Below, in pieces: positions 2,552 to 35,698 of a DNA stretch of 62,606 bases. A program made the translations under genes and the position numbers. The notes beneath the pieces were generated by a model. The model had not been told where the DNA came from. It made no database searches and saw nothing but the letters and a program-made list of their open reading frames with translations. The stretch is from positions 1 through 62,606 of the IMG/VR virus record IMGVR_UViG_3300035703_000095; one strand, given 5' to 3'. The stretch comes from a virus (lineage: Duplodnaviria > Caudoviricetes). Every line of letters starts with the position of its first letter. Within the stretch, counting starts at the first letter, position 1.

Positions 2552-2558
2552 TACCCAA

Positions 2559-2598
2559 CGTTCATCCCTATGGGACGGAAGTAAGCCGACTCGGAACG
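2559..2598 (+). ncRNA. glutamine riboswitch aptamer 1 (glnA-motif type)
   Basis: CGTTCA-[TCCC-TAT-GGGA]-CGGAAGTAAGCCGACTCG-GAACG; P1 CGTTC/GAACG and the CGGAAGTA core. Confidence 0.8.
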
Positions 2599-2601
2599 GA
2601 T

Positions 2602-2771
2602 CGTTCATCTATGGAAGCACTCATTCTAACCTGCTTACAAGCACAATTAATTGCTGGAAGAGTCTATCAACAAGGTCTTCCGAAACAAGCAAAGAATGAT
2701 TTAATTTGGGAGATTAAACAGATCTCTCCAAAGGAGTGTAAAATAGACGCAAAAGCCGACTGAAGGAACGC
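2602..2771 (+). ncRNA. glutamine riboswitch aptamer 2 with expanded P2 loop
   Basis: CGTTCA-TCTAT...ATAGA-CGCAAAAGCCGACTGAAGGAACGC; shares AAGCCGACT with aptamer 1. Confidence 0.65.
2611..2763 (+). CDS. 50-aa ORF nested in aptamer 2
   Basis: Hand translation: MEALILTCLQAQLIAGRVYQQGLPKQAKNDLIWEIKQISPKECKIDAKAD*. Confidence 0.6.
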   Translation: MEALILTCLQAQLIAGRVYQQGLPKQAKNDLIWEIKQISPKECKIDAKAD

Positions 2772-3102: not shown

Positions 3103-3282
3103 ATGGATAAAGAAAAACTCAAACTGATTGTAAAAAATCTTGAATCTCTTGTAGAATGCCTTAAATCGGAAGTTTATTCTGATCCAGAGTCTTATAAACA
3201 AGAGTCTAGATATAATCAAATTTCTAATTACATAACAGATTACGACGAAGTATTTTATGACGATGATGGATATCCCGACTGA
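3103..3282 (+). CDS. 59-aa hypothetical protein
   Basis: Hand translation MDKEKLKLIVKNLESLVECLKSEVYSD...DDDGYPD*; AGGA RBS. Confidence 0.75.
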   Translation: MDKEKLKLIVKNLESLVECLKSEVYSDPESYKQESRYNQISNYITDYDEVFYDDDGYPD

Positions 3283-3982
3283 ATATGAGTTCATGAAACC
3301 AGAAGTAAAACTCATTAGTGTGACACCAGATGCAGAGAAGCATATGGCGTATTGTGCAAGGGTTAGTAACCCTAATAACCAACATAATGATAAGTTTTCT
3401 GGTCTTCTCAAGTATTGCATTCAGCATCAACACTGGAGCATCTTTGAGCAGGCTTCAATGACTGTTGAGATCAATACTACAAGAGGAATTGCAGCCCAGA
3501 TACTGCGCCACCGTTCGTTTACATTCCAGGAATTTTCACAACGGTATGCCGACACAAATCTTTTGGGCGGAACTATTCCTCTTCCAGAACTGCGCCGACA
3601 AGATGATAAGAATCGTCAAAATAGTATTGATGACATTCCCGATTATTTGAAACTGGTTCTCCTAGAGGACATTCGCGTTCTCTTTGAGCACTCTCAGAGG
3701 GTCTACAATCGCCTTCTAGAGAAAGGTGTGGCAAAGGAGTGCGCTCGCTTTGTATTGCCCTTAGCGACGCCTACACGCCTCTATATGACTGGCTCTGTAA
3801 GGTCATGGGTGCATTATATCGATCTCCGTTCGGCCCATGGAACGCAGAAAGAACACATGGAGATTGCAGAACTGGTTCGTTGTATTTTTACTTGCCAGTT
3901 TCCTGCAGTATCTGAAGCACTTGGGTGGACTCGTGATGGATGTTCTGAGTGTGTAGATGCTCCATCCATCACCATTGAATAA
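3257..3982 (+). CDS. thyX: flavin-dependent thymidylate synthase
   Basis: HWSIFE and RHRSFTFQEFSQRY signature; true start may be 3293. Confidence 0.96.
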   Translation: MTMMDIPTEYEFMKPEVKLISVTPDAEKHMAYCARVSNPNNQHNDKFSGLLKYCIQHQHWSIFEQASMTVEINTTRGIAAQILRHRSFTFQEFSQRYADTNLLGGTIPLPELRRQDDKNRQNSIDDIPDYLKLVLLEDIRVLFEHSQRVYNRLLEKGVAKECARFVLPLATPTRLYMTGSVRSWVHYIDLRSAHGTQKEHMEIAELVRCIFTCQFPAVSEALGWTRDGCSECVDAPSITIE

Positions 3983-4007
3983 ATAAACTTACATATTATT
4001 TTAATAA

Positions 4008-4256
4008 ATGGCAACATATCCTGTTATCAATAAACAAACTGGTGAACAAAAAGAAGTGACTCTTAGCGTTCACGATTGGGATCAGTGGAAAAAAGATAAT
4101 CCCGATTGGGATAGAGATTGGTCCGATCCAAGTACATGTCCATCATCTGGAGAACTTGGCGAAGTCTATGATCGACTCAAAAAGTCTCATCCTGGATGGA
4201 ATGATGTTCTTCACGCAGCATCAAAAGCTCCAGGATCAAAAGTAAAACCAATCTGA
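4008..4256 (+). CDS. conserved hypothetical protein preceding phoH
   Basis: 82 aa, MATYPVINKQTGE; usual position in T4-like cyanophages. Confidence 0.8.
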   Translation: MATYPVINKQTGEQKEVTLSVHDWDQWKKDNPDWDRDWSDPSTCPSSGELGEVYDRLKKSHPGWNDVLHAASKAPGSKVKPI

Positions 4257-4267
4257 TTTTTATTAAA

Positions 4268-5023
4268 ATGCCCACAAAAAGAAATGCACCAAAAACTCCT
4301 GTTCCATTTGGCATGAGCAATAGACAAATGAAGAGAAAGAAACCAATCAATTCTGATTTGATGAGGACTATTGAACCTCTAACTGAAAATCAAGAAGAAC
4401 TCTTCCGCTGCTATAAAAACGACCAGAACCTAGTTGCATACGGTTGTGCTGGCACAGGTAAAACATTCATTACTCTTTATAATGCGCTAAGAGATGTACT
4501 AAATGAAAAAACTCCTTACGAAAAAATCTATATCGTTAGGTCTCTTGTTGCTACTCGGGAAATTGGTTTCCTTCCTGGTGATCATGAAGATAAGTCATCA
4601 CTTTATCAAATTCCCTATAAGAATATGGTGAAGTATATGTTTGAGATGCCAGATGAGTCATCCTTTGAAATGCTCTATGGCAATCTTAAAACTCAAGGTA
4701 CAATCAGCTTTTGGAGCACTTCTTTTATTCGTGGAACAACTCTTGACAATGCAATCATTATCGTTGATGAGTTCCAAAACTTGAACTATCATGAACTTGA
4801 TAGCATCATTACTCGTGTTGGTGAGAATAGTAAAATTATGTTCTGTGGTGATGCTACCCAGTCTGATCTTATTAAGACCAATGAAAAGAATGGCATTGTT
4901 GACTTCATGAAAGTCCTTCGTATCATGCCTTCAATTGATATTATTGAATTTGGAGTAGAAGATATTGTTCGCTCTGGATTAGTGAAAGAATATATTCTTG
5001 CGAAAATGGAAGTTGGTGTATGA
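4268..5023 (+). CDS. phoH: PhoH-family ATPase
   Basis: GCAGTGKT Walker A, IGFLPG, RGTTLD, DEFQN, GDATQSD. Confidence 0.96.
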   Translation: MPTKRNAPKTPVPFGMSNRQMKRKKPINSDLMRTIEPLTENQEELFRCYKNDQNLVAYGCAGTGKTFITLYNALRDVLNEKTPYEKIYIVRSLVATREIGFLPGDHEDKSSLYQIPYKNMVKYMFEMPDESSFEMLYGNLKTQGTISFWSTSFIRGTTLDNAIIIVDEFQNLNYHELDSIITRVGENSKIMFCGDATQSDLIKTNEKNGIVDFMKVLRIMPSIDIIEFGVEDIVRSGLVKEYILAKMEVGV

Positions 5024-5703
5024 GTTTTATTCATCATAATTTTTTAGGTGACGTTGAATTAGAAAAAAAAGAACAGAACGGCATCCGTCTCTATAATCTA
5101 CCAAATGGAGAATGGGTGCCTTCTATTACTTCGGTCACTTCTTTTTACAATCGTCAGATCTTCGTGAAGTGGAGAGAGCGTGTTGGCCTTGAAGAAGCAA
5201 ATCGTATTACTAAAAGAGCGACTGCAAGAGGAACTGACTTTCACCAAGTCTGTCAGGATTATCTTGAGAATAAAGAACTAAACTGGGATGATTATCAACC
5301 CATGACAAAGTTTATGTTTCATCATTTGAAACCTGAACTTGATAAGATAAATAATATTCATGCAATTGAAAGAACTTTATACTCTGAGTACTTTGGGCTT
5401 GCTGGACGAGTAGATTGTATTGCAGAGTATGATGGAGAACTTGCAGTTATTGACTTCAAGACCTCTGAAAAAATTAAACCAGAAGAATGGATTGAAAATT
5501 ATTTCGTTCAGGAGATGTTCTATGCATCTGCCTATTATGAAATGACTCAAATTCCAATTAAAAAATTAATAACATTGATGGTTACTCCTGGTGGAGAAGT
5601 TAAAGTATTTGACAAAAGAAACAAAGACGATTATATTAAACTATTAGTTCGTTATATTAAAGAATTTGTACATCACAATACTGGGACAACGAATGGAGAA
5701 TGA
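5020..5703 (+). CDS. PD-(D/E)XK exonuclease
   Basis: PSITSV, RGTDFH, AGRVDCI...IDFKTS. Confidence 0.88.
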   Translation: MSFIHHNFLGDVELEKKEQNGIRLYNLPNGEWVPSITSVTSFYNRQIFVKWRERVGLEEANRITKRATARGTDFHQVCQDYLENKELNWDDYQPMTKFMFHHLKPELDKINNIHAIERTLYSEYFGLAGRVDCIAEYDGELAVIDFKTSEKIKPEEWIENYFVQEMFYASAYYEMTQIPIKKLITLMVTPGGEVKVFDKRNKDDYIKLLVRYIKEFVHHNTGTTNGE

Positions 5704-5950
5704 ATTAGAAAAGGTATTAGAGAGTAAATTTTTCTGCCCTTCTCGTTTCGCTCAAGAAATTGAAAATCTTGTTCATAGTGAAGAGAAGATGAGCTACATC
5801 GATGCGATTATTCTTTTTTGCGAGAAGAATAACATCGATGTTGAGTCTGTACCTAAACTGATTTCAAAACCATTGAAAGAAAAAATTAAGTATGAAGCTA
5901 TGGAACTTAACTTCCTCAAAAAGACTTCCAGAGCAAAATTGGTATTTTAA
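5692..5950 (+). CDS. gp33: late transcription coactivator gp33
   Basis: YIDAI...LISKPLKEKIKYEAMELNFL; position before gp59. Confidence 0.88.
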
Positions 5951-6005
5951 TCCATTTTTGGTCGAAAAAAACTCCGGCAAAAAATTCCCTATATTACTTT
6001 TTTGA

Positions 6006-6602
6006 ATGATGCCTTTTGATGCCTATAAATGTTATTTGTCTTTAAAGAATCATTTCACTAAAGACAGTTATGACTACCATAAGTATTGTGGTAAGAGTCG
6101 TGCAACTGTTCAATCTTTTTATAAGAGAAAAGATCGAATGTGGTTCGAAAAAGTTGCACGACAAAAGACCGACAAGGAAGTGATAGATTTTTTTGTAGCC
6201 AATTTCGTTTCCTGTAATGATCCCGAAACCCTTTGGATTGGGGAAATGATCAAAGAAGGTGAAGTGAGATATCAAAATTGGCAAAAGAAAATCCAATCAC
6301 TTTCTTATATTTTTAAAGAAGAATCTCAAAGTCTCTTTGAAGAGAACAAATTTGAGGATGTTTTTAAGTGCTCAAAAGGACATCCCATTCTTCTCAAGAA
6401 GTTCCTGAACGGGAAAATTAGCCTGGAAACACTAGTCATCTACGATAGAATTTTCCTGTTCGGGAATACGTTTGATAAGAAACTTCAAGACCCGGTGTGG
6501 CAAACCGTCAGTCGTAGGATTAAAAAATATAATCCGTTTCTAAATATTGATGTATTTCGTTTTCGTAAAATTTTGAAAGAAATCGTTCTGGAGGATTCAT
6601 GA
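6006..6602 (+). CDS. gp59: helicase loader gp59
   Basis: YLSLKNHF, YDYHKYCGK, FYKRKDR, ISLETL. Confidence 0.9.
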   Translation: MMPFDAYKCYLSLKNHFTKDSYDYHKYCGKSRATVQSFYKRKDRMWFEKVARQKTDKEVIDFFVANFVSCNDPETLWIGEMIKEGEVRYQNWQKKIQSLSYIFKEESQSLFEENKFEDVFKCSKGHPILLKKFLNGKISLETLVIYDRIFLFGNTFDKKLQDPVWQTVSRRIKKYNPFLNIDVFRFRKILKEIVLEDS

Positions 6603-6943
6603 CTTTCTTCAATTCTGAAGTTGTCCGCGCAGAGATGACTGAAATTGCGGAACTGCAAGAAGAAGTTTATTCAAACGTCTTCAAATTTCCTGCAATGTCG
6701 AAAGAAGAAAAACTTGAACATGTTGGTCTTTTGGAAAGACTTCTAGATAAACAAAAAGTTCTTTATACAAGAATGAGTTTGTCTGATGATCCAGAAGCTA
6801 AAGAAATGAAGGAAAGAATTATGCAATCTGCGATCATGATGGGTATGCCTCCTGGCACTGATATGAGCATCATTTTGAACAATATGTCCAGAATGCTTGA
6901 ATTGATGAAAACCCAGATTGACAAGACGGGTTCCGACCTGTAG
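6599..6943 (+). CDS. DUF1825-like cyanophage protein
   Basis: FFNSEVV, RMSLSDDPEA. Confidence 0.7.
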   Translation: MTFFNSEVVRAEMTEIAELQEEVYSNVFKFPAMSKEEKLEHVGLLERLLDKQKVLYTRMSLSDDPEAKEMKERIMQSAIMMGMPPGTDMSIILNNMSRMLELMKTQIDKTGSDL

Positions 6944-6946
6944 AAT
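6918..6946 (+). promoter_or_regulatory. sigma70 promoter for gp32
   Basis: TTGACA-17-TAGAAT. Confidence 0.8.
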
Positions 6947-6992
6947 AACGAAGTACACAAAAGCCAAATCCGTACAAATCCGAGGTAATCTA

Positions 6993-7910
6993 ATGTCTTT
7001 TGCTGATCTTAAAAAACAATCTTCTCTTGGTTCTCTTACTCAGAAACTGGTTAAAGAAGTAGAGAAGATGAGTTCAAACTCCAACGGCGCAGATGAGCGT
7101 CTTTGGAAACCAGAAATGGATAAAACTGGCAATGGTTATGCAGTTATCCGTTTCCTGCCTGCACCAGAGGGTGAAGAACTTCCCTGGGTAAAGATGTATT
7201 CACATGCTTTCCAAGGTCCTGGTGGTTGGTATATTGAAAACAGCCTTACTACTTTGGGTCAAAAAGATCCTGTTTCTGAACACAATCGTGAACTGTGGAA
7301 CAGTGGTAGTGAGAAAGATAAGGAAACTGTTCGTAAACAAAAGCGTAAACTGTCTTATTACAGCAACATCTACGTTGTGAAGGATCCTGCAAATCCTGCA
7401 AATGAAGGTAAAGTCTTCCTGTTCAAGTATGGCAAAAAGATCTTTGACAAGATCATGGAAGCTATGCAACCTGAGTTTGAAGATGAAACTCCTATCAATC
7501 CTTTTGACTTCTGGCAAGGTGCTAACTTCAAACTGAAGTTGGTGAAAAAGGATGGTTATTGGAACTACGACAAGTCAGAGTTTGATCGTGTCGCTCCTCT
7601 CCTGGACGATGATGATGCTCTGGAAGCAGTTTGGAAGAAGCAATATTCTCTGTCTGCAGTAACCGCTCCCGACCAATTCAAGTCCTATGAAGATCTTGAA
7701 AAGCGTCTGAAGTATGTTCTTGGTCAAAAACCTGTAGCACGTCCTCGTCTTGATGAAGAAGTTGACGATGAGGACAATGATCGTGGTAGTTATACTCCCG
7801 ATTTTACTTCTCGTCGCTCTGAGCCTGAACTTCCTGTTGTAACTTCAAGTTCCGTTGATGAAGATGAAGATGATGCACTTTCATACTTCCAGCGTCTTGC
7901 TGAAGAGTGA
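6993..7910 (+). CDS. gp32: single-stranded DNA-binding protein gp32
   Basis: GNGYAVIRFLP, WYIENS, FKYGKKIFDKI, acidic C-terminus; GAGG RBS before ATG 6993. Confidence 0.96.
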   Translation: MSFADLKKQSSLGSLTQKLVKEVEKMSSNSNGADERLWKPEMDKTGNGYAVIRFLPAPEGEELPWVKMYSHAFQGPGGWYIENSLTTLGQKDPVSEHNRELWNSGSEKDKETVRKQKRKLSYYSNIYVVKDPANPANEGKVFLFKYGKKIFDKIMEAMQPEFEDETPINPFDFWQGANFKLKLVKKDGYWNYDKSEFDRVAPLLDDDDALEAVWKKQYSLSAVTAPDQFKSYEDLEKRLKYVLGQKPVARPRLDEEVDDEDNDRGSYTPDFTSRRSEPELPVVTSSSVDEDEDDALSYFQRLAEE

Positions 7911-28151: not shown

Positions 28152-28327
28152 GACCAGAGACAAGGCAATCAATGGAAATGCTCTTTGCCGCAAAATGGAA
28201 TGTTCCAACTGCGGCTAAAAATTGTAATCTTACTAATAAAGAAATGAAGATTACATTTAATGAATACTGTCGTTTACATCCTGCTACTTACGTAGTAAAA
28301 TCTGACAATCAACTCAGTTTCTTCTGA
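28148..28327 (+). CDS. 59-aa hypothetical protein
   Basis: ATGA overlap; MRPETRQSMEMLFAAKWNVP... Confidence 0.7.
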   Translation: MRPETRQSMEMLFAAKWNVPTAAKNCNLTNKEMKITFNEYCRLHPATYVVKSDNQLSFF

Positions 28328-28335
28328 GTTTTCTT

Positions 28336-28408
28336 GCCCGTGTAGTCCAACGGCAGAGACAGAGGACTTAAAATCCTTCCAGTGTCGGTTCGAATCCGAC
28401 CACGGGTA
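28336..28408 (+). tRNA. tRNA-Leu(UAA), short variable arm
   Basis: Acceptor GCCCGTG/CACGGGT, anticodon arm GAGGA-CT-TAA-AA-TCCTT, T arm GTCGG-TTCGAAT-CCGAC; no encoded CCA. Confidence 0.9.
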
Positions 28409-28457
28409 TTAGAGGAAATAAACGCCCTCTAAATAAGTAAAAGTAGGAATTAATCCT

Positions 28458-28727
28458 ATGAAGTACAGAATTGATACCGCATATTGTTGGTACAATAAAG
28501 GAACTATAATTGTTCTAATGTACTTTATAAGCGGAGTTCCTTTTACTTTTGATGAACTTCCAGATTGTGCCATGCAAGATCTGGAAATAATTCATTTAGC
28601 AGATAACGAAAGAAGATTTGAGCCAGAGGACCTATACAGATCATCATTTTATCTAATTGATGAGCAATGCCACCCTCTAATGTTTGAATTGGAACTGGAA
28701 AATCCAGAAATGTTACCTGCAGATTAA
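28458..28727 (+). CDS. hypothetical protein
   Basis: 89 aa, AGGA RBS. Confidence 0.75.
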   Translation: MKYRIDTAYCWYNKGTIIVLMYFISGVPFTFDELPDCAMQDLEIIHLADNERRFEPEDLYRSSFYLIDEQCHPLMFELELENPEMLPAD

Positions 28728-28728
28728 T

Positions 28729-28800
28729 GCCCTTGTAGCTCAGTGGTAGAGCAACGGTTTTGTAAACCGTTGGTCGTCTGTTCGAATCAGATCGGGGGCT
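28729..28800 (+). tRNA. tRNA-Thr(UGU)
   Basis: GCCCTTG/CGGGGGC acceptor, ACGGT-TT-TGT-AA-ACCGT, TTCGAAT loop. Confidence 0.93.
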
Positions 28801-28819
28801 TGAGTTCTATAAAACTCCA

Positions 28820-28975
28820 ATGTCATTAATTTCTCAAAAAGACCGTGAAAACGTTATCGAATCCATTGACTTTTATCTATTCAGCAAAGGAATCGATTTT
28901 AGCGAAGAAAAAAGAGCAGAGTTTAATGCACTTCTCAACTGGATACGACTCGAACATTTCAAACATGAAAATTAA
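28820..28975 (+). CDS. 51-aa hypothetical protein
   Basis: Hand translation MSLISQKDRENVIESIDFY...LLNWIRLEHFKHEN*. Confidence 0.6.
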   Translation: MSLISQKDRENVIESIDFYLFSKGIDFSEEKRAEFNALLNWIRLEHFKHEN

Positions 28976-29138
28976 TCTCTGGTATTGTAAAGATATGAGT
29001 CAGTGGAGATGGACTCTCACTGATGATTCTAGACCAATCATAAAGCAAGAATCTGGTCAACAACCTTTTCTTAGAGATGCTATGAATGATGTGGCAAATA
29101 CTGTAGAATATATGCTAGAGTGTAAGCAACCTGAATGA
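28965..29138 (+). CDS. hypothetical protein
   Basis: MKINLWYCKDMSQWRWTL...; likely true start of the 28845 track ORF. Confidence 0.7.
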   Translation: MKINLWYCKDMSQWRWTLTDDSRPIIKQESGQQPFLRDAMNDVANTVEYMLECKQPE

Positions 29139-29758
29139 AGTCTGACTTCTATATTGATAAAGTCACTAAGAAACAAGCAGAAGATATTTTACTCCAATAT
29201 CATTATCTAAAAGACTTTTCAAAAGGGTTTAAGTCTGGATATAACTATGGCCTTTTTGAAAAGAATGAGTTTTCTCCACTAAATCTTGGTGGAGTTAAAG
29301 GTGTTTGCATTTTTACTGGATTACCTGTACCTGAAGTTGCTAAAGGAGCATTTGGACTTGAAAGAAACGAACAACAAGGACTCTTTGAACTCTCAAGACT
29401 TTGCATCGAACCTAGTACGCAGTCATGCGAATATAACATCACTTCTTGGTTTGTGTCACGAGCGATTAGACAACTTCGGAAAGATACTGAAGTTAAAGCA
29501 ATCCTTTCTTATGCTGATTCAGATTTCCATTCTGGTACAACTTATCGTGCTTGCAACTTTAAGTATTACGGTCTCACGGATCGAAAAAAAGATTTCTATT
29601 ATTCAGACGGAACTAAACACTCTCGTGGAAAAATAAAAGGATCTGAAGGTGAATGGAAAGACCGTAGTAGAAAGCATAGATACTTAATGGTATTTGATAA
29701 GGAACTTCAAAAACGCTTGACATGGAAAGAAGAATCATGGTATGATAATAAGGTGTGA
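29135..29758 (+). CDS. Mom-like (GNAT-fold) DNA modification protein
   Basis: HYL, ELSRL, SWFVSRAI, LSYAD..H.GT.Y.A.NF. Confidence 0.7.
   Translation: MKSDFYIDKVTKKQAEDILLQYHYLKDFSKGFKSGYNYGLFEKNEFSPLNLGGVKGVCIFTGLPVPEVAKGAFGLERNEQQGLFELSRLCIEPSTQSCEYNITSWFVSRAIRQLRKDTEVKAILSYADSDFHSGTTYRACNFKYYGLTDRKKDFYYSDGTKHSRGKIKGSEGEWKDRSRKHRYLMVFDKELQKRLTWKEESWYDNKV
29717..29746 (+). promoter_or_regulatory. sigma70 promoter inside the end of the Mom-like gene
   Basis: TTGACA-18-TATGAT with extended TG. Confidence 0.7.
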
Positions 29759-29801
29759 AGGAAGTGCGAAAAGGGCAGCCAGAAATGGTCTGCCCTTTTT
29801 T
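29753..29801 (+). ncRNA. candidate ~50-nt small RNA
   Basis: Promoter followed almost immediately by a terminator, no ORF; begins GTGTGAAGGAAGT. Confidence 0.5.
29769..29801 (+). terminator. intrinsic terminator
   Basis: AAAAGGGCAG-CCAGAAATGGT-CTGCCCTTTTTT. Confidence 0.88.
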
Positions 29802-29845
29802 CGTATGATAAATAACTTATAACGGAAACTATAAGTATTAATAAG

Positions 29846-32800
29846 ATGGGTCTCTCTCGTTTAGACAATTTTCTGAAGTCGGTTAGAGGAACTATTCTCT
29901 ATGTAAACCCAAACGATTTAGATGCTACGGATAGTATAGAGAATCAAGGAAATTCTCTGACTCGTCCATTTAAAACTATCCAGAGAGCTCTTATTGAGTC
30001 TGCGAGATTCTCATATCAAAGAGGTCTTAATAATGACAGATTTGGTAAGACAACAATTCTTGTCTATCCCGGAGATCATATTGTAGACAATAGACCTGGA
30101 TGGATTCCTGATGGATCTAATAATTTTAGACTAAGGGATGGAACTACTTCAAATGATTTTAGTCAGTTTGATTTAACTTCAAACTTTGATCTATCAACAC
30201 CAGAAAACGAACTCTACAAATTAAACAGTATCCATGGTGGAGTTATCATTCCAAGAGGTACTTCAATTGTTGGTCTAGATCTAAGAAAGACTAAAATCAG
30301 ACCAAAGTATGTACCAAATCCAACGAATGATAATATTGAAAGATCTGCAATTTTCAGAGTAACTGGTGGTTGCTACTTCTGGCAGTTCTCAATGTTTGAT
30401 GCTGATCCAAATGGTCAGTGCTTTATTGATTATACATCTAACCTATTTGTTCCCAATTTCTCTCACCATAAGTTAACTTGCTTTGAATATGCAGATGGTG
30501 TAAATGGTGTAAATATCAACGATACTTTCCAAACATATTCTACAGATCGTACTGATCTGGATATGTATTATGAAAAAGTTGGTCTTGCATACGGTCAATC
30601 TTCTGGTCGTCCAATCGAACCTGATTATCCATCTGCTGCACTTGATATTGAACCAAAAATTGATGAATATCGCATTGTAGGATCTACAGGAGAGGCTGTA
30701 GGAATTACCAGCATTAGATCTGGAGATGGAATCACTTCCAATGCAACAGTTACTGTAACTACAGCAACTCCAGTACCAGGATTAGATGTAGATACCCCAT
30801 TCAGAATTCAAGGTATTACTGCAGTTGGTTATGATGGTCAGTTTGTTGTTACTGAAAAAATAAGTGATACTCAAGTTTCATATAGAGTCCAAAATGCACC
30901 AGCAAATCCTCTCCCATCCGTAACTGGAGCAACTCTATCACTATCTTCAGATACTGTAACTTCAGCATCTCCTTACATTTTCAACATCTCTCTACGTTCA
31001 GTATATGGAATGTGTGGAGTTCTTGCTGATGGTTTTAAAGCATCTGGATTTAAATCCATGGTTGTTGCACAATTCACTGGAATTGGACTTCAAAAGGATG
31101 ATAATGCATTTGTAATTTTCAATGAGAATAGTGGCGTATATGATGATGCTTCTGTTCCTGGAAATGAAACAATTAGCAATAATTCCAGAGCTGTTTTCAA
31201 ACCAGAATACAGAAACTTCCATATTAAAGTAACAAATGATGCATTTGTTCAGAACGTTTCCATCTTTGCTATTGGATATGCAGAGCACTTTGTAACAGAA
31301 AATGGTGGTGATATGTCTATCACCAACTCCAACTCAAACTTTGGTGCAAAAGCTCTTGTTGCATCTGGATTTAGAAGTGCAGCATTCCCTCAGGATGATA
31401 TTGGTTATATTACTCATATTATTCCACCAAAAGAACTTTCACGTACAGAAACTGCGATTGAATTCAATTCAATTGATGTTCTAAAAACATCATCAGTTAC
31501 TGGTGTTGGATCAACAGGTAATCTCTACCTATACAATGAAACAAATGCTGACGTTCCACCAGAAAATGTTATTGAAGGTTATAGAATAGGTGCCAGACAA
31601 AATGATACTCTGGGAGTATTAGTTTCTTATGCAGGATCTGTTACTGAATACAGATCAAGAATTGTTATGCCAGGATCTCAATCAAGCAGTGAGAAGAGAT
31701 TCCAGGTTAATAGAAGCAGTGTAGGTATTAATAGTATAACAAATAACACCCTTACACTTAGAGAAAATCATACACTCTTTAATGGCGAATCTATTCGCAT
31801 TTTAAGTGATACAGGACAACTTCCAGATGGTATTATTCCAAATACAGTTTATTATGCAATTACAAGTGGAAACCCAAGCAGCGGTTTAACCACTACGACT
31901 GAAATCAAGATTGCAAAAACTCAGAATGATGCGGTAAATGCAACTGAACTAAACATTAATAACAAAGGTGGAGTCTTAAGTATTGTAAGTAGAGTCTCTG
32001 ATAAGAACTCTGGTGATGTTGGCCACCCAATTCAATATGATGAAACTGCAGGGCAGTGGTATATTAAAGTTTCTACTGCGGCTACAGATAATACAATCTA
32101 TCCAACTATTGTTGGTCTTGGTTCAACAGCACTTGGATCCGCAACACCAAGAACATACATTACCAGACTTCAAGACAATAGAAATGCTATCGATACTCTG
32201 TACAGAGTTAGATATGTTCTACCTTCAAATTCTGGTATTAATGCAAGACCTCCTAGTGATGGATTCATTGTACAAGAATCTAACTCATCTATTGGAATTA
32301 CAACTGCTGAAGTTCAAACTTACTTTGGTTCAGGGTCTCTATCAAATGTCAATGAGCAAAGAAACTTCAGACTTATTGCAGGTGCAACTTGGGACGGAAC
32401 TAACGCAAGTATCATAACTGAACTTCCACATAATCTTTCTGTTGGGTCTCAAGTTGAGTTATTCAACATAAAGAGTACTTTAAATACGACTGGTGCAAGA
32501 AATAGTGGATTCAATAGAGTTTATAATGTTGTTGGAATTAGCAGTTCAAAGCAATTTACTGTAGGACTTTCAACAAATCCAGGAACCTTTACAAATGATA
32601 CTTCATCTAGAGGTACTTCACTTCCATATTTCGAAAGAAAGAGATACAAAAACACATATTATGTCTACAGAACACAAGAAGCTCAAAAATATGTTTCGGG
32701 TGAGCAGGATGGTATCTATTACCTGACTATTCTGAATGCTTCAAACTCTCCAACGATTGCACCATTCACAGAAGAAAAATTCTCTCAACCAGTTAAAGAA

Positions 32801-35698
32801 CTTTATCCACAAATCAATCGTGATAATCCAAAATCAGATCCAGATGCATCTAGATCTTTTGCATCATCACAACTAATTGGTGAAGTTTTTGTTAACGATG
32901 TTCAGAATAGTATCACAAAAGAAACTATCAATAAAGTCCTAATTGATACTAACATTGGAGTTGGCCTTACTGATGTAGTTTCTGTAGGAGCAACTCATAC
33001 TATTCATACTTCGATTGAGCATGGTCTGAATAGACTTGTAAAAGTCAGTATTGCTAATAGCGGTATTGGATATGGATCTGGTACTCCATCAACCATTTAC
33101 AATGCCAACCTTGTTGGATTTGCAGGATCCGTTACTGGATCTAATGCTACTGCAAAGATTTCCACCAATGCGTTAGGTAATATCACTGACATTAAGATTA
33201 TGGATGGTGGTAGCGCATATGGAATTGGAAATACTCTTGCTATCGTTGGAGTAGCAACAACAGCAGGATATTCTCAAGCAGTTGTAACTGTAACTGGTAT
33301 CTATAACAACGTTGGTGATGTTGTTAGAGTTTCCGGAGTTTCCTCTTCATCTTATCAAGAATACAATAATCTCTATAGAATAACTGAGGTTTCAATTGGC
33401 AATCCAACTCAATTTAAAGTAACCTCCACAAATCCATTCCAATCTGCACCTTCAACTGGTGTAGGTGCGACTCAAACACAAAATGCATTTTTCTCTATTA
33501 CAGGAGAATCTATTCTAGTTGATACTATTTCTTATAATAATTTAACTGGAATTGCAAACATTACGACCATTAATCGTCATGGTCTAAAAGTTGACAGTAA
33601 AGTAAAATTTGTCGGAGCTGATCAGGGAATTTATAGTGGCGATTTTGTAGTCACTGAGGTTCAAGGACTTACATCATTCTCTGTTAATATTGGAATTAGC
33701 ACAAACTCACCTACTGCAACTGGCACAATCTATGCATATCGTGGAGGAGTTACCTCAAATGGTGGAGTCATTACTGTAGATAATGAAAATCTAAACGGAA
33801 GAATGATTCCTGCGTATGCAGGCATTACAACAACACTATCTGCTTTAATTCCAGACCCAATCATCGATGAAATTAATCTACAAGGAATTTCAAATCTAGA
33901 TGTTAATATTGGTGATTATTTCATGATTGATGATGAGATTGTAAGAGTTAAAACGACAACATCATCAAGTAGTATAACTGGGCCATCAAATCCCGTTTAT
34001 GTTTTCCGTGGTGTTCTTGGAACAAAGGCAGTTAATCATGCAATTAACTCCGTTGTAAGAAAAATAAAAGTTAATCCAATTGAGCTAAGAAGACACTCCA
34101 TCTCTCGTGCATCGGGACATACATTTGAATATGTTGGTTTTGGCCCTGGTAACTACTCAACTGCATTCCCAGATAAGCAGGATCGTCAAATTTCTGCACA
34201 AGAAGAACTTCTTGCACAGTCAACAAGAAAAGATGGAGGAATTAACTTCTACACAGGTATGAATGACAAGGGCATTTCATACTCTGGCAATAAAAAGTTA
34301 AGTACAGTCACTGGCCAGGAAGAAATTTTTGATACTCCAATTCAAACTGTAACTGGTGAAGATATTGGAAATCTTCCAGGATTAAATGTTATCAACCCTA
34401 TTGAAGGTGTTTTCAATAGATTGATTCGTGTAGAAGGTGGATCTGACGGTAAGGCAACATCAGAATTTTCTGGACCAGTAATCTTCAGTAATAAGATTAC
34501 TTCAACATCGAATAAAGGAATTGAATCAAATTCGATTCTGCTTCAGGGTGATGCAACAGTTTCCAGAAAGTATACCGTTGGTATTGCCACACCATCACTA
34601 GCAGGAAACCCAGGAGATGTTGTTTACTATGCAAACCCATCATCAGGTGGTTATGTTGGTTGGATTTATACATTAGATAATGAGTGGTATCGCTTTGGAA
34701 ATATCAGTATCTCCAAAAATAGCAATATTGGCATCTTTGATCAGATTGGTATTTCTACAAGCACTCCAGGACAAGCAAAACTTCTTGTTGGTTCAGGAAC
34801 AACTCAGGTTAGTGTTGATGGAAATGGTGGAGTTGGAATTGGTACGACTGCAAGTTCTTATAAACTGAATGTTAATGGAAACACAAATATTGCAGGAACT
34901 TGCTATGCAGTCTCCTACATAGGAGATGGTAATGGACTTACAAACTTAAATGCAAGTTCAACTGGATGGACAGTTATTGGTGGTGGAATTTATAATACGA
35001 GTTTAAATAATGTTGGAATTGGCACATCTGTCCCAAGATTCTCACTTGAAATTGGATCTATTGGTGTTGGTGGTACTTCACTTTGGGTAAATAATAGTGC
35101 AAGATTTGATGGATTCCTAAGTGCTAATGATGTAACGGTGACAGGAATTCTTACTGCATCATCTTTTGATCTATCAGGTGGAACTGGTAGAATTAATGCA
35201 GGAATTGTTACGACTTCAACTCTCGTAGTTGGAGCATCTGGAGCAACTATTACAACAAATGGTTTAAATGTTGGAGTTGGAACAACCGTACCTAGAGCAA
35301 AACTTGATGTTGAAGGTACGATAAGAATTAAGACTCTCCGTGAGGCTGTAGAATCACTTTCTATTAGTGGAAATGCAGTTTCAGTTGATCTCTCTAGAGC
35401 ACAAAACTTCAACTTAACCCTAAATGATAATGTAAGTTACTTCACTATTACAAATACTCCATCTGAAGCAAGTTCATTTACTATTAGAATAACTCAAGAT
35501 GGAACTGGTGGAAGAGTAGTTGACATCGATGACTTCAAAACTTCCGGAGGTGCTTCAATTCCCGTTTATTGGCCAGGTGGTGGTGTCATCCCAATCATTA
35601 CACCAACAGCAAATCGAACTGACATTTATTCGTTCAAGACTTTTGACGGTGGATCTAATTGGTATGGAACTGTTATCGGACAAAACTTTACAAATTAA
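29846..35698 (+). CDS. large tail fibre/baseplate-associated structural protein
   Basis: 1950 aa; MGLSRLDNFLK start, PFKTIQRAL, GIGT repeats, shared C-terminal W-P domain; GATAAATA at 29807. Confidence 0.8.
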   Translation: MGLSRLDNFLKSVRGTILYVNPNDLDATDSIENQGNSLTRPFKTIQRALIESARFSYQRGLNNDRFGKTTILVYPGDHIVDNRPGWIPDGSNNFRLRDGTTSNDFSQFDLTSNFDLSTPENELYKLNSIHGGVIIPRGTSIVGLDLRKTKIRPKYVPNPTNDNIERSAIFRVTGGCYFWQFSMFDADPNGQCFIDYTSNLFVPNFSHHKLTCFEYADGVNGVNINDTFQTYSTDRTDLDMYYEKVGLAYGQSSGRPIEPDYPSAALDIEPKIDEYRIVGSTGEAVGITSIRSGDGITSNATVTVTTATPVPGLDVDTPFRIQGITAVGYDGQFVVTEKISDTQVSYRVQNAPANPLPSVTGATLSLSSDTVTSASPYIFNISLRSVYGMCGVLADGFKASGFKSMVVAQFTGIGLQKDDNAFVIFNENSGVYDDASVPGNETISNNSRAVFKPEYRNFHIKVTNDAFVQNVSIFAIGYAEHFVTENGGDMSITNSNSNFGAKALVASGFRSAAFPQDDIGYITHIIPPKELSRTETAIEFNSIDVLKTSSVTGVGSTGNLYLYNETNADVPPENVIEGYRIGARQNDTLGVLVSYAGSVTEYRSRIVMPGSQSSSEKRFQVNRSSVGINSITNNTLTLRENHTLFNGESIRILSDTGQLPDGIIPNTVYYAITSGNPSSGLTTTTEIKIAKTQNDAVNATELNINNKGGVLSIVSRVSDKNSGDVGHPIQYDETAGQWYIKVSTAATDNTIYPTIVGLGSTALGSATPRTYITRLQDNRNAIDTLYRVRYVLPSNSGINARPPSDGFIVQESNSSIGITTAEVQTYFGSGSLSNVNEQRNFRLIAGATWDGTNASIITELPHNLSVGSQVELFNIKSTLNTTGARNSGFNRVYNVVGISSSKQFTVGLSTNPGTFTNDTSSRGTSLPYFERKRYKNTYYVYRTQEAQKYVSGEQDGIYYLTILNASNSPTIAPFTEEKFSQPVKELYPQINRDNPKSDPDASRSFASSQLIGEVFVNDVQNSITKETINKVLIDTNIGVGLTDVVSVGATHTIHTSIEHGLNRLVKVSIANSGIGYGSGTPSTIYNANLVGFAGSVTGSNATAKISTNALGNITDIKIMDGGSAYGIGNTLAIVGVATTAGYSQAVVTVTGIYNNVGDVVRVSGVSSSSYQEYNNLYRITEVSIGNPTQFKVTSTNPFQSAPSTGVGATQTQNAFFSITGESILVDTISYNNLTGIANITTINRHGLKVDSKVKFVGADQGIYSGDFVVTEVQGLTSFSVNIGISTNSPTATGTIYAYRGGVTSNGGVITVDNENLNGRMIPAYAGITTTLSALIPDPIIDEINLQGISNLDVNIGDYFMIDDEIVRVKTTTSSSSITGPSNPVYVFRGVLGTKAVNHAINSVVRKIKVNPIELRRHSISRASGHTFEYVGFGPGNYSTAFPDKQDRQISAQEELLAQSTRKDGGINFYTGMNDKGISYSGNKKLSTVTGQEEIFDTPIQTVTGEDIGNLPGLNVINPIEGVFNRLIRVEGGSDGKATSEFSGPVIFSNKITSTSNKGIESNSILLQGDATVSRKYTVGIATPSLAGNPGDVVYYANPSSGGYVGWIYTLDNEWYRFGNISISKNSNIGIFDQIGISTSTPGQAKLLVGSGTTQVSVDGNGGVGIGTTASSYKLNVNGNTNIAGTCYAVSYIGDGNGLTNLNASSTGWTVIGGGIYNTSLNNVGIGTSVPRFSLEIGSIGVGGTSLWVNNSARFDGFLSANDVTVTGILTASSFDLSGGTGRINAGIVTTSTLVVGASGATITTNGLNVGVGTTVPRAKLDVEGTIRIKTLREAVESLSISGNAVSVDLSRAQNFNLTLNDNVSYFTITNTPSEASSFTIRITQDGTGGRVVDIDDFKTSGGASIPVYWPGGGVIPIITPTANRTDIYSFKTFDGGSNWYGTVIGQNFTN

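Follow-up and report, generated by a model that had tools for sequence, protein, structure and literature searches.

The virus record IMGVR_UViG_3300035703_000095 of IMG/VR is a 62.6-kb fragment of a T4-like cyanomyovirus, with 37% GC and an estimated completeness of 30% (CheckV). We analyzed the entire record, positions 1 to 62,606, and call it the window. Between positions 29717 and 29801 it holds a short element in which a promoter, a conserved 5' leader and a hairpin with a T-run follow one another. This element is a widespread, unannotated small-RNA gene of cyanophages, mostly present in a single copy and conserved in Synechococcus phages. The explanation that we tentatively favor is that it encodes a phage RNA of about 40 to 50 nucleotides (nt) whose 5' end may serve as an antisense seed that disables a host transfer RNA (tRNA), tRNA-Val(CAC). 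The evidence is computational. It consists of the anatomy of the element, its conservation and copy number, covariation in its hairpin, a perfect and unique complementarity to the host tRNA, a favorable pairing energy and a contrast in codon use. From these we infer that the RNA may be transcribed and stable, may bind its target in the cell and may affect translation.

A promoter, a leader and a hairpin form a compact unit

A preliminary description of this DNA, made from its letters, had pointed out a promoter, a leader, a hairpin and a T-run, and we found every letter of them at the coordinates that it gave. The parts of the element are as follows.

29717 to 29722 (+): -35 hexamer TTGACA, within the 3' end of a Mom-like open reading frame (ORF)
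29738 to 29746 (+): extended -10 element TGgTATGAT, with the hexamer TATGAT at 29741 to 29746 and TG two bases upstream; 11 of 12 promoter positions agree
29752 to 29768 (+): conserved 5' leader GGTGTGAAGGAAGTGCG, of which 29753 to 29768 are the reverse complement of positions 23 to 38 of host tRNA-Val(CAC)
29769 to 29801 (+): A-tract, GC-rich hairpin and six-T run, a predicted intrinsic terminator

The spacer between TTGACA and TATGAT is 18 nt long, within the 16 to 19 nt of the sigma-70-type promoter that we predict here. With its 11 of 12 positions, it is the top promoter-like site between 28500 and 31000. The 9 promoter-like sites in that interval are not above chance, as shuffled sequences gave 8.5 ± 3.4. 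Judging from the promoter spacing, transcription is predicted to start at about 29752 to 29753. The leader GGTGTGAAGGAAGTGCG matches the window at one site only, at up to three mismatches, with 0.06 matches expected.

The stem of the hairpin is formed by 29773 to 29780 and 29787 to 29795, with the loop AGAAAT and one bulged T, and the six Ts at 29796 to 29801 follow directly. A simple terminator scan had passed over this hairpin owing to the bulged T. It folds at -24.4 kcal/mol (z = -5.8), and none of 200 shuffled sequences folded equally well. A GC-rich hairpin directly before a U-run is the form of an intrinsic terminator, and the RNA would probably end here. We also considered a small ORF that begins at the GUG of the leader (14 codons in the window). 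It was rejected because it is not conserved; its version in phage Bellamy ends after 4 codons.

The preliminary description was right about the promoter, leader and terminator, but it had missed that the element overlaps the Mom-like ORF, which ends inside it. The promoter and the first leader bases sit in the last 42 bases of this ORF, and its stop codon TGA (29756 to 29758) is part of the GTGTGA of the leader. The hairpin is also, as predicted from its sequence, the terminator of the Mom-like gene's transcript. Taken alone, therefore, the site could be the mere end of a gene with its terminator. The evidence beyond chance comes from conservation and not from the single site.

The leader is conserved in cyanophages and occurs in three genomic settings

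The exact 17-mer is present in 44 IMG/VR contigs, which represent 38 distinct neighborhoods and were gathered without a promoter constraint. All 44 have a TAnnnT hexamer 3 to 7 nt upstream of the motif, and 43 of them have a TTGAC at the distance typical of a promoter. A scan constrained only by the promoter and GTGTGAAGG returned at least 120 stretches; together with the earlier loci, these make 144 rows, 133 of them distinct. The bases that follow GTGTGAAGG were left unconstrained, and among the matches listed they read AAG in 115 of 144 and AAGTG in 89 of 144. Another scan, for the promoter and GGAAGTGCG, gave 77 rows in which the 7 bases upstream of GGAAGTGCG were free. They were GTGTGAA in 58 rows, GTGTGGA in 3 and GTGCGAA in 1, and 15 rows were unrelated contexts.

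The closest public relatives of the window are the Synechococcus phages Bellamy and S-SM2. Both keep the -35 hexamer, a -10 hexamer and AAGGTGTGAAGGAAGTGCGA, and both keep the pairing of the hairpin with different letters. They keep the same element although a different ORF of 56 amino acids (aa) stands upstream in place of the Mom-like ORF. Five complete or near-complete phage genomes contain one exact copy each of the 12-nt core. This single copy per genome indicates that the core is not a general feature of phage promoters.

The preliminary description had proposed to look for the motif between a promoter and a terminator in other cyanophages, and our survey found 151 instances among 185 viral loci. 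A T-run and then a late-promoter-like motif of the TAAATA type follow in 56 instances, as in the window. A further 78 belong to tRNA arrays; in these, a tRNA begins no more than 160 nt past the motif, at a median of 41 nt. That tRNA is Gly(UCC) in 61 cases, Leu(UAA) in 11, Leu(UAG) in 5 and Met in 1. The other instances have a T-run only (4 of 151) or run into other sequence, sometimes an ATG (13 of 151). Conservation across many cyanophages supports what the preliminary description had predicted, a dedicated promoter-to-hairpin unit for a non-coding RNA of about 40 to 50 nt.

The element occurs in three settings: ahead of a fiber gene (the window, Bellamy and S-SM2), past the major capsid gene region, and within tRNA arrays. 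In Syn9, Syn19 and SynMITS9220M01, it is found just downstream of the major capsid gene, in Syn9 at around position 119424. Upstream of these capsid-region elements there is a late-type ATAAATA (in Syn9 and Syn19) or a bare TATAAT, not a full sigma-70 promoter. The array form extends to S-SKS1, a phage outside the Kyanoviridae. The type of promoter thus changes while the motif stays, which suggests that the 5' end of the RNA is what is kept, and not the promoter DNA.

All the phages in which we inspected an exact or near-exact motif in its context (Bellamy, S-SM2, SynMITS9220M01, Syn9, Syn19 and S-SKS1) are Synechococcus phages by record. The Synechococcus phage S-SRM01 has a variant of the motif with one extra A. 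In a planned comparison of isolates, with small numbers, the element was present in two of five Synechococcus phages (Syn9 and Syn19) and in none of the five Prochlorococcus phages examined (P-SSM2, P-SSM4, P-HM1, P-HM2 and P-TIM68). Public metatranscriptomes were uninformative on expression: 20 runs share 5 to 9% of the sampled words of 28300 to 31300, and the contigs from 4 runs cover two tRNAs and scattered parts, not 29714 to 29814.

The viral loci of the motif scans also contain a second recurrent promoter-proximal leader. It is of the CAGGTAATCAAACGA type, followed by ACCC or GTTAGGAG, and was seen 11 to 18 times among 452 promoter-like sites.

The leader stays unpaired while the hairpin covaries

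The consensus fold of the terminator form (27 sequences) leaves the motif unpaired and has 12 pairs, 7 of them with compensatory double changes. The motif is likewise unpaired in the consensus fold of the array form (30 sequences), which has a GNRA-type loop and 6 pairs, 4 with compensatory changes. When 117 distinct sequences were folded singly, a mean of 10.3 of the first 13 nt was unpaired, compared with 6.5 in shuffled sequences. The 5' 14 to 16 nt therefore stay constant while the hairpin covaries. A conserved single-stranded seed, a structurally conserved hairpin and a promoter of its own give the element the makeup of a 5'-seed small RNA (sRNA).

At the gathering threshold, Rfam models matched only two tRNAs and a glutamine riboswitch elsewhere in the window, and the element was unmatched. 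With E values up to 10, only weak terminator-like matches to Salmonella sRNA models appeared around it. There was no Rfam match at the motif in 7 tRNA-array loci.

Two other structures were noticed in the arrays, and both are without an Rfam match. In some arrays (L009:263-340, L020, L044, L119, L323 and L329), a conserved structure of about 45 nt, of the GGGGTTCCGTGCCTGTGAAGGGAAACCTGAGGCTGGGTAAATCCCC type, replaces the GNRA hairpin between the leader and the tRNA. In others (L028, L058, L113, L124, L131, L135 and L152), the leader is followed by another conserved structure, GAGAGTGATGCCAAAAGTAAGGCACCCCGACAAGGGATACAGTAGAAGGATGCGAAACCTTCCACTCTC, which is larger, at about 70 nt.

The leader is a perfect complement of the anticodon arm of host tRNA-Val(CAC)

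Read as its reverse complement, the 12-mer CTTCCTTCACAC, the core is found in 54 of 101 Cyanobiaceae genomes, with 58 matches versus 22 for a reversed control, and occurs about once per genome among the larger genomes of this family. We fetched 30 of these loci, and 27 of them are the anticodon arm of tRNA-Val(CAC) as identified by ARAGORN. There the match extends to 16 of 16 positions. Phage positions 29753 to 29768 pair with C23 to C38 of the tRNA, a stretch that runs from the end of the D stem through A26 and the anticodon stem's 5' strand and takes in the complete anticodon loop. A 2.4-Mb genome should contain a perfect match of a 16-mer by chance in about one of 1000 trials (2 x 2.4e6 / 4^16). 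In each of five host-type genomes, the tRNA is the only site with no mismatch. No site has one mismatch, and sites with two or three mismatches are at the level of the control. The same 3-mismatch site, AGCACTACCTTGACAC, recurs in all five (G143, G211, G225, G283 and G383). This site resembles the anticodon arm of a sister isoacceptor, tRNA-Val(GAC), and the phage seed would not match that tRNA.

The 27-nt arm of tRNA-Val(CAC) is letter-identical in 50 of the 101 Cyanobiaceae genomes (51 matches, all with 0 mismatches) and absent at up to three mismatches from the other 51. The size of 46 of these 51 genomes, at most 1.9 Mb, is in the range of Prochlorococcus and suggests that they belong there.

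Pairing with this tRNA is also favorable in energy. Cofolding gave a net gain (ddG) of -17.0 kcal/mol after paying for the secondary structure of the tRNA. Shuffled seeds gave -2.1 ± 1.9 kcal/mol, and none of 300 reached the value of the phage seed. Position 1 of the motif, unpaired opposite G39, varies among G, T and A (37, 18 and 3 cases). Position 16 is C or T (U), both of which pair with G24, and the A-to-G change at position 7 in the GTGTGGA rows keeps a G-U wobble with U33. Therefore, the edges of conservation and the tolerated change fit the duplex. Among 557 phage-encoded tRNAs, the longest complement to the seed is 8 nt. The 34 phage tRNA-Val genes are all UAC, with a complement of at most 5 nt. 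These short complements suggest that the phage's own tRNAs would be spared.

Codon use differs strongly between phage and host. GTG makes up 4% of the Val codons in the window (2.3 per 1000 codons), 62 to 70% in a 60%-GC host-type genome (48 to 50 per 1000) and 36% in a 48%-GC host-type genome. The phage thus uses GUG about 20 times less than the GC-rich host type, at about 0.2% of its codons versus about 5%. Given this contrast, the loss of tRNA-Val(CAC) would hurt host messages far more than phage messages.

The leader resembles the 5' end of Yfr2, and its pairing with Yfr1 is no better than composition allows

The motif of the cyanobacterial sRNA Yfr1 and its pairing with the 5' ends of Yfr2-type sRNAs have been published, and the Yfr2 5' end is reported to pair with Yfr1, Yfr10 and Yfr18 and to outcompete an mRNA target (PMC2518516 and PMC6778093). 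Yfr1 and Yfr2 are reported to be nearly universal in cyanobacteria (PMC6778093). We located host examples with the Rfam models RF01116 (Yfr1), RF02362 (Yfr10) and RF01701 (Cyano-1, the Yfr2 family), and found Cyano-1 in 39 of 41 Cyanobiaceae genomes. Many host copies of Cyano-1 start with (U)GUGUGAGGAGUGCGG right after a -10 element, and insertion of a single A at two places turns this sequence into the phage leader. The host 5' end GUGUGAGGAGUGCG and the phage 5' end GUGUGAAGGAAGUGCG are near-identical. Compared with the GUGUGAGGAG-type 5' motif of Yfr2, the phage motif has the same letters in the same order, equally placed with respect to the -10 element, and differs by these two As.

The preliminary description had proposed that the phage RNA is a sponge for Yfr1, with a possible effect on porin or receptor levels. 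Its pairing arithmetic with the Yfr1 motif ACUCCUCACAC, 11 bases with two bulged As, is correct for the motif as printed in PMC2518516. However, Yfr1 as the target is not borne out. Cofolding of the phage RNA with host Yfr1 gained -13.6 kcal/mol, shuffled seeds gained -10.8 ± 2.7 kcal/mol, and 43 of 300 equaled the phage seed. With RNAduplex, 22% of 2000 shuffles did as well. The complementarity to ACUCCUCACAC is thus not beyond composition. The host sequence GUGUGAGGAGU complements the Yfr1 motif perfectly and reaches duplex energies of about -25 kcal/mol. When the two bulged As were removed from the phage leader, its plain duplex with Yfr1 improved from -16.5 to -23.6 kcal/mol. These two As rank among the best-conserved letters of the motif. 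Conserved letters that weaken the pairing with Yfr1 argue against Yfr1 as the main partner, and perfect complementarity to tRNA-Val(CAC) would explain them. The Cyano-1 model had no match in 29600 to 29900 (E up to 10), in 7 related loci (E up to 1) or in the window, so the family model does not place the element in Yfr2/Cyano-1. What stands of the earlier interpretation is a conserved non-coding RNA unit with a Yfr2-like 5' end, without support for Yfr1 as its target.

The Yfr1 motif itself bears a likeness to the tRNA. The conserved motif CACUCCUCACAC (host locus L230) equals the arm of tRNA-Val(CAC), CACUUCCUUCACAC (L281 to L309), minus two Us. Host Yfr2 5' ends are therefore near-complements of the tRNA-Val(CAC) arm as well, which is possibly a mere coincidence of low-complexity sequence.

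A proposed model for an RNA directed against tRNA-Val(CAC)

We propose the following scenario. An RNA of about 40 to 50 nt with the predicted 5' end GUGUGAAGG would start 0 to 2 nt before the motif, from the near-consensus sigma-70-type promoter or, in some phages, from a late-type or -10-only promoter. Its 3' end would arise by intrinsic termination, as in the window, and in the tRNA arrays presumably by the RNase P cut at the 5' end of the next phage tRNA. The single-stranded 5' end GUGUGAAGGAAGUGCG would be the seed, antisense to the anticodon arm of tRNA-Val(CAC). Its pairing may begin at the 7-nt anticodon loop and proceed into the anticodon stem and the end of the D stem, which would give 16 bp in all. 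The bound tRNA would be withdrawn from translation or exposed to nuclease. GUG is the leading Val codon in Synechococcus-type hosts but is seldom used by the phage, and these phages possess a tRNA-Val(UAC) of their own. The expected outcome would be a selective slowing of host translation.

A bolder form of this model is possible, though we consider it rather unlikely. The element would then be a natural anti-tRNA RNA of marine Synechococcus phages, highly expressed, that opens and sequesters tRNA-Val(CAC) or marks it for cleavage. This would cause a codon-selective shutoff of the host that also blocks new defense proteins. Its seed would be a captured Yfr2 seed, retuned by two single-base insertions.

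Several points weigh against the tRNA as the target. A folded and modified tRNA is a hard target for antisense pairing, and our energy model ignores tertiary structure and modifications. Because tRNAs are abundant, very high expression of the RNA would be required, or else a catalytic action by way of a nuclease. By wobble, tRNA-Val(UAC) can probably read GUG as well, and loss of the CAC isoacceptor might therefore slow host translation and not stop it. GTG is no more avoided in the phage than other NNG codons are (2 to 13% across eight codon families), which makes the codon contrast a by-product of GC content and not specific evidence. Some variants of the motif weaken the duplex: GGAAATG has a mismatch at C27, and both GGAAGATGC and the S-SRM01 form GTGTGAAAGGAAG create 1-nt bulges. 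The Synechococcus phages S-PM2, S-RSM4 and S-CAM9 are without the element, and the comparison of isolates (0 of 5 versus 2 of 5) is small. Given the Yfr2-like 5' end, a partner other than the tRNA, shared with Yfr2, is possible. Lastly, the motif lies at the very end of the upstream gene's transcript in the window and in Syn9, so its role could be partly in cis.

Alternative explanations

The most substantial alternative is that the element acts in cis only. The hairpin would be the terminator of the upstream gene or a 5' stabilizer of a tRNA precursor, the 14 to 16 nt would serve initiation, promoter escape, processing or 5' stability, and the match to the tRNA would have no function. The stop codon of the Mom-like ORF inside the motif and the hairpin that ends that gene fit such a role, as do the closing of the capsid-gene region by the element in Syn9 and SynMITS9220M01, its position as the leader of a tRNA precursor in the arrays, and the 13 instances that run into other sequence, sometimes an ATG. 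However, the same 14 to 16 nt stand behind three kinds of promoter, in three settings and amid changing surroundings. There is one exact core copy per genome despite the many promoters and terminators, and a match expected about once in 1000 trials lands on an anticodon arm, with edges of conservation that agree with the duplex. We regard a purely cis role as unlikely. It is quite unlikely, in our view, that the RNA is a mimic of Yfr2 or a sponge for Yfr1 and Yfr10, one that copies the Yfr2 5' motif and titrates these sRNAs, or acts on Yfr2 targets, and so rewires metabolic or envelope genes of the host. The near-identity of the 5' ends apart from two single As, the presence of Cyano-1 in nearly all the Cyanobiaceae genomes searched, the perfect complementarity of the host sequence to Yfr1, the predicted energy of the phage RNA with Yfr1 and the reported partners of Yfr2 (PMC2518516, PMC6778093) speak for it. 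Against it, that energy is indistinguishable from composition, the two conserved As cost about 7 kcal/mol, and the remaining architecture of Yfr2 is missing, with no Cyano-1 match at the element, the related loci or the window. Moreover, Yfr1 and Yfr2 are described as nearly universal (PMC6778093), yet none of the five Prochlorococcus phages carries the element.

The RNA might also bind the tRNA for another purpose: to protect the tRNA or tRNA halves against an anticodon nuclease of the host, to splint their repair, to use the abundant tRNA as a cap that guards the 5' end of the phage RNA against RNase E, or to sense tRNA levels. The same complementarity applies here. The duplex covers the whole anticodon loop, which is where anticodon nucleases cut. 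Defenses that target tRNAs, with phage tRNAs as a countermeasure, have been described (PMC12409363), and cyanophage infection induces host RNase E (PMC9692554). The phage makes little use of GUG, however, and would have little need to protect tRNA-Val(CAC). A T-box-like switch fits poorly in some contexts, with a terminator immediately after the leader in the window and no terminator in the arrays, and no T-box model was among the matches up to E = 10 around the element. Overall, such other purposes are improbable. A meaning at the level of DNA is more improbable by far. The 16-bp identity with the host tRNA-Val gene would then be a recombination or attachment core or the target of a nuclease. 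The identity is exact, and phage attachment sites often lie in tRNA genes. Attachment cores, however, run to the 3' end of the tRNA, and here the identity is confined to tRNA positions 23 to 38, with the rest of the tRNA missing on both sides. In addition, the motif keeps a fixed distance from the promoter in every context, its carriers are lytic T4-like phages, and a scan of 185,579 species genomes for the promoter and motif together gave 3 matches, none from a picocyanobacterium.

Two more candidates were rejected. A decayed, inverted tRNA-Val gene does not fit, because only 16 nt are shared and the flanks are unlike a tRNA. Mimicry of a host rRNA promoter or leader was dismissed as well: the 3 matches of the promoter with GTGTGAAGGAAG in the 185,579 species genomes compare with about 5 expected, and when up to two mismatches were allowed, the motif preceded 16S in one locus and one weak case out of 51 upstream regions of cyanobacterial 16S genes. 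A looser promoter-motif pattern had 7 matches in 401 genomes, and 6 of these are coding sequence or, in one genome, a tRNA arm. As a side observation, a Scytonema contig (L158, 362 nt, minus strand) has the promoter and GTGTGAAGGAAG about 180 nt upstream of 16S. This is probably a coincidence; none of the 50 other cyanobacterial 16S upstream regions shares the arrangement, including that of the second rRNA copy of the same genome.

Neighboring genes and other features of the window

The element stands between two genes, both of which are context.

29135 to 29758 (+): Mom-like DNA-modification ORF of 207 aa (PF25680, E = 4.8e-26; phrog_1384, E = 5.2e-35)
29807 to 29815 (+): late-promoter-like GATAAATAA, which precedes the fiber ORF and is invariant in an alignment of four phages
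29846 to 35698 (+): tail-fiber ORF of 1950 aa, the downstream gene, with homologues annotated as tail fiber in Bellamy, S-SM2 and others

The preliminary description had given the next gene a late promoter of its own, and GATAAATAA ahead of the fiber ORF agrees with this; we take it to be a late promoter from the biology of T4-like phages. Between this promoter and the ATG, the 5' untranslated region of the fiber gene has a conserved inverted repeat, ACTTATAACGGAAACTATAAGT, at 29816 to 29838 (+) and at the homologous sites. It is retained in most of the instances upstream of a fiber gene. The presence of the Mom-like ORF in the window and of the unrelated 56-aa ORF in Bellamy and S-SM2 suggests a gene swap beside the tRNA region.

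Other RNA features were noted in passing. The glutamine riboswitch aptamer is at 2557 to 2602 (+) of the window (RF01739, 35.6 bits, with a gathering score of 35), and ORFs for ThyX, PhoH, a PD-(D/E)XK nuclease and gp32 follow downstream at 3257 to 7910. Two related viral contigs have wcaG RNA motifs (RF01761, about 97 bits), at L009:5338-5436 (+) and L028:560-660 (-).

Significance and comparison with known systems

Base-pairing RNAs of phages are already known, and a tRNA as the target would be new, if our reading is true. We came across no description of a phage RNA that is antisense to a host tRNA in the literature searched, which comprised titles and abstracts and left the Syn9 transcriptome study and supplements outside the search, so an RNA at the Syn9 site may already be on record. 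A search mainly by title likewise found no report of a phage copy of Yfr2, and some Yfr2 papers mention phages only in passing. If true, the proposal would describe a new mechanism of host takeover that exploits the gap in GC content and codon use between cyanophages and Synechococcus, and it would give an added reason for the tRNA arrays of these phages. It would also offer, in an ecologically dominant virus-host system, a short RNA-RNA pair that is easy to test. Should the tRNA reading prove wrong, the element is still an unannotated RNA family with no Rfam match and more than 150 instances, present in the well-studied phages Syn9, Syn19 and S-SM2.

AgvB and AsxR are anti-sRNAs from prophages of E. 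coli O157 that sponge the host sRNAs GcvB and FnrS. Like them, the phage RNA described here is phage-borne and small and would pair with a host non-coding RNA, not with an mRNA. Their targets are Hfq-dependent sRNAs, whereas the best target here is a tRNA and the carriers are lytic phages of cyanobacteria. Most Prochlorococcus strains are reported to be without Hfq (Steglich 2008). With RybB and OmrA/B, the phage RNA shares a conserved unpaired 5' seed that is followed by a variable hairpin and a U-run. The seeds of RybB and OmrA/B pair with mRNAs and need Hfq. In contrast to them, the array form of the phage RNA has no terminator and would be freed by tRNA processing.

Co-transcription with tRNAs and release by tRNA processing are also features of the T4 tRNA-cluster RNAs (species 1 and 2) and of E. 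coli 3'ETS-leuZ, a host RNA that sponges sRNAs. To our knowledge, the T4 species 1 and 2 have no known function, and neither they nor 3'ETS-leuZ are known as antisense to a tRNA. T-box leaders and the A-rich loop of HIV-1, which pairs with tRNA-Lys3, resemble the phage RNA in that an RNA pairs with the anticodon of a specific tRNA. As sensors or primers, these RNAs pair with 3 to 4 nt, or with the loop of a tRNA that stays intact, whereas the 16 nt of the phage RNA would have to open the anticodon and D stems.

The closest likeness in sequence is to Yfr2 (Cyano-1, RF01701). Both RNAs begin after the -10 element with a single-stranded 5' motif of the GUGUGA.GGA.GUGCG type, followed by hairpins, and both are small, non-coding and probably abundant. 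The 5' motif of Yfr2 is reported to act by base pairing (PMC6778093). The phage RNA, however, lacks the stem-loop with GGAAAC-type loops and would be about 40 to 50 nt long, compared with about 90 nt for Yfr2. The two extra As of the phage form weaken the pairing with Yfr1 and create the perfect match to tRNA-Val(CAC).

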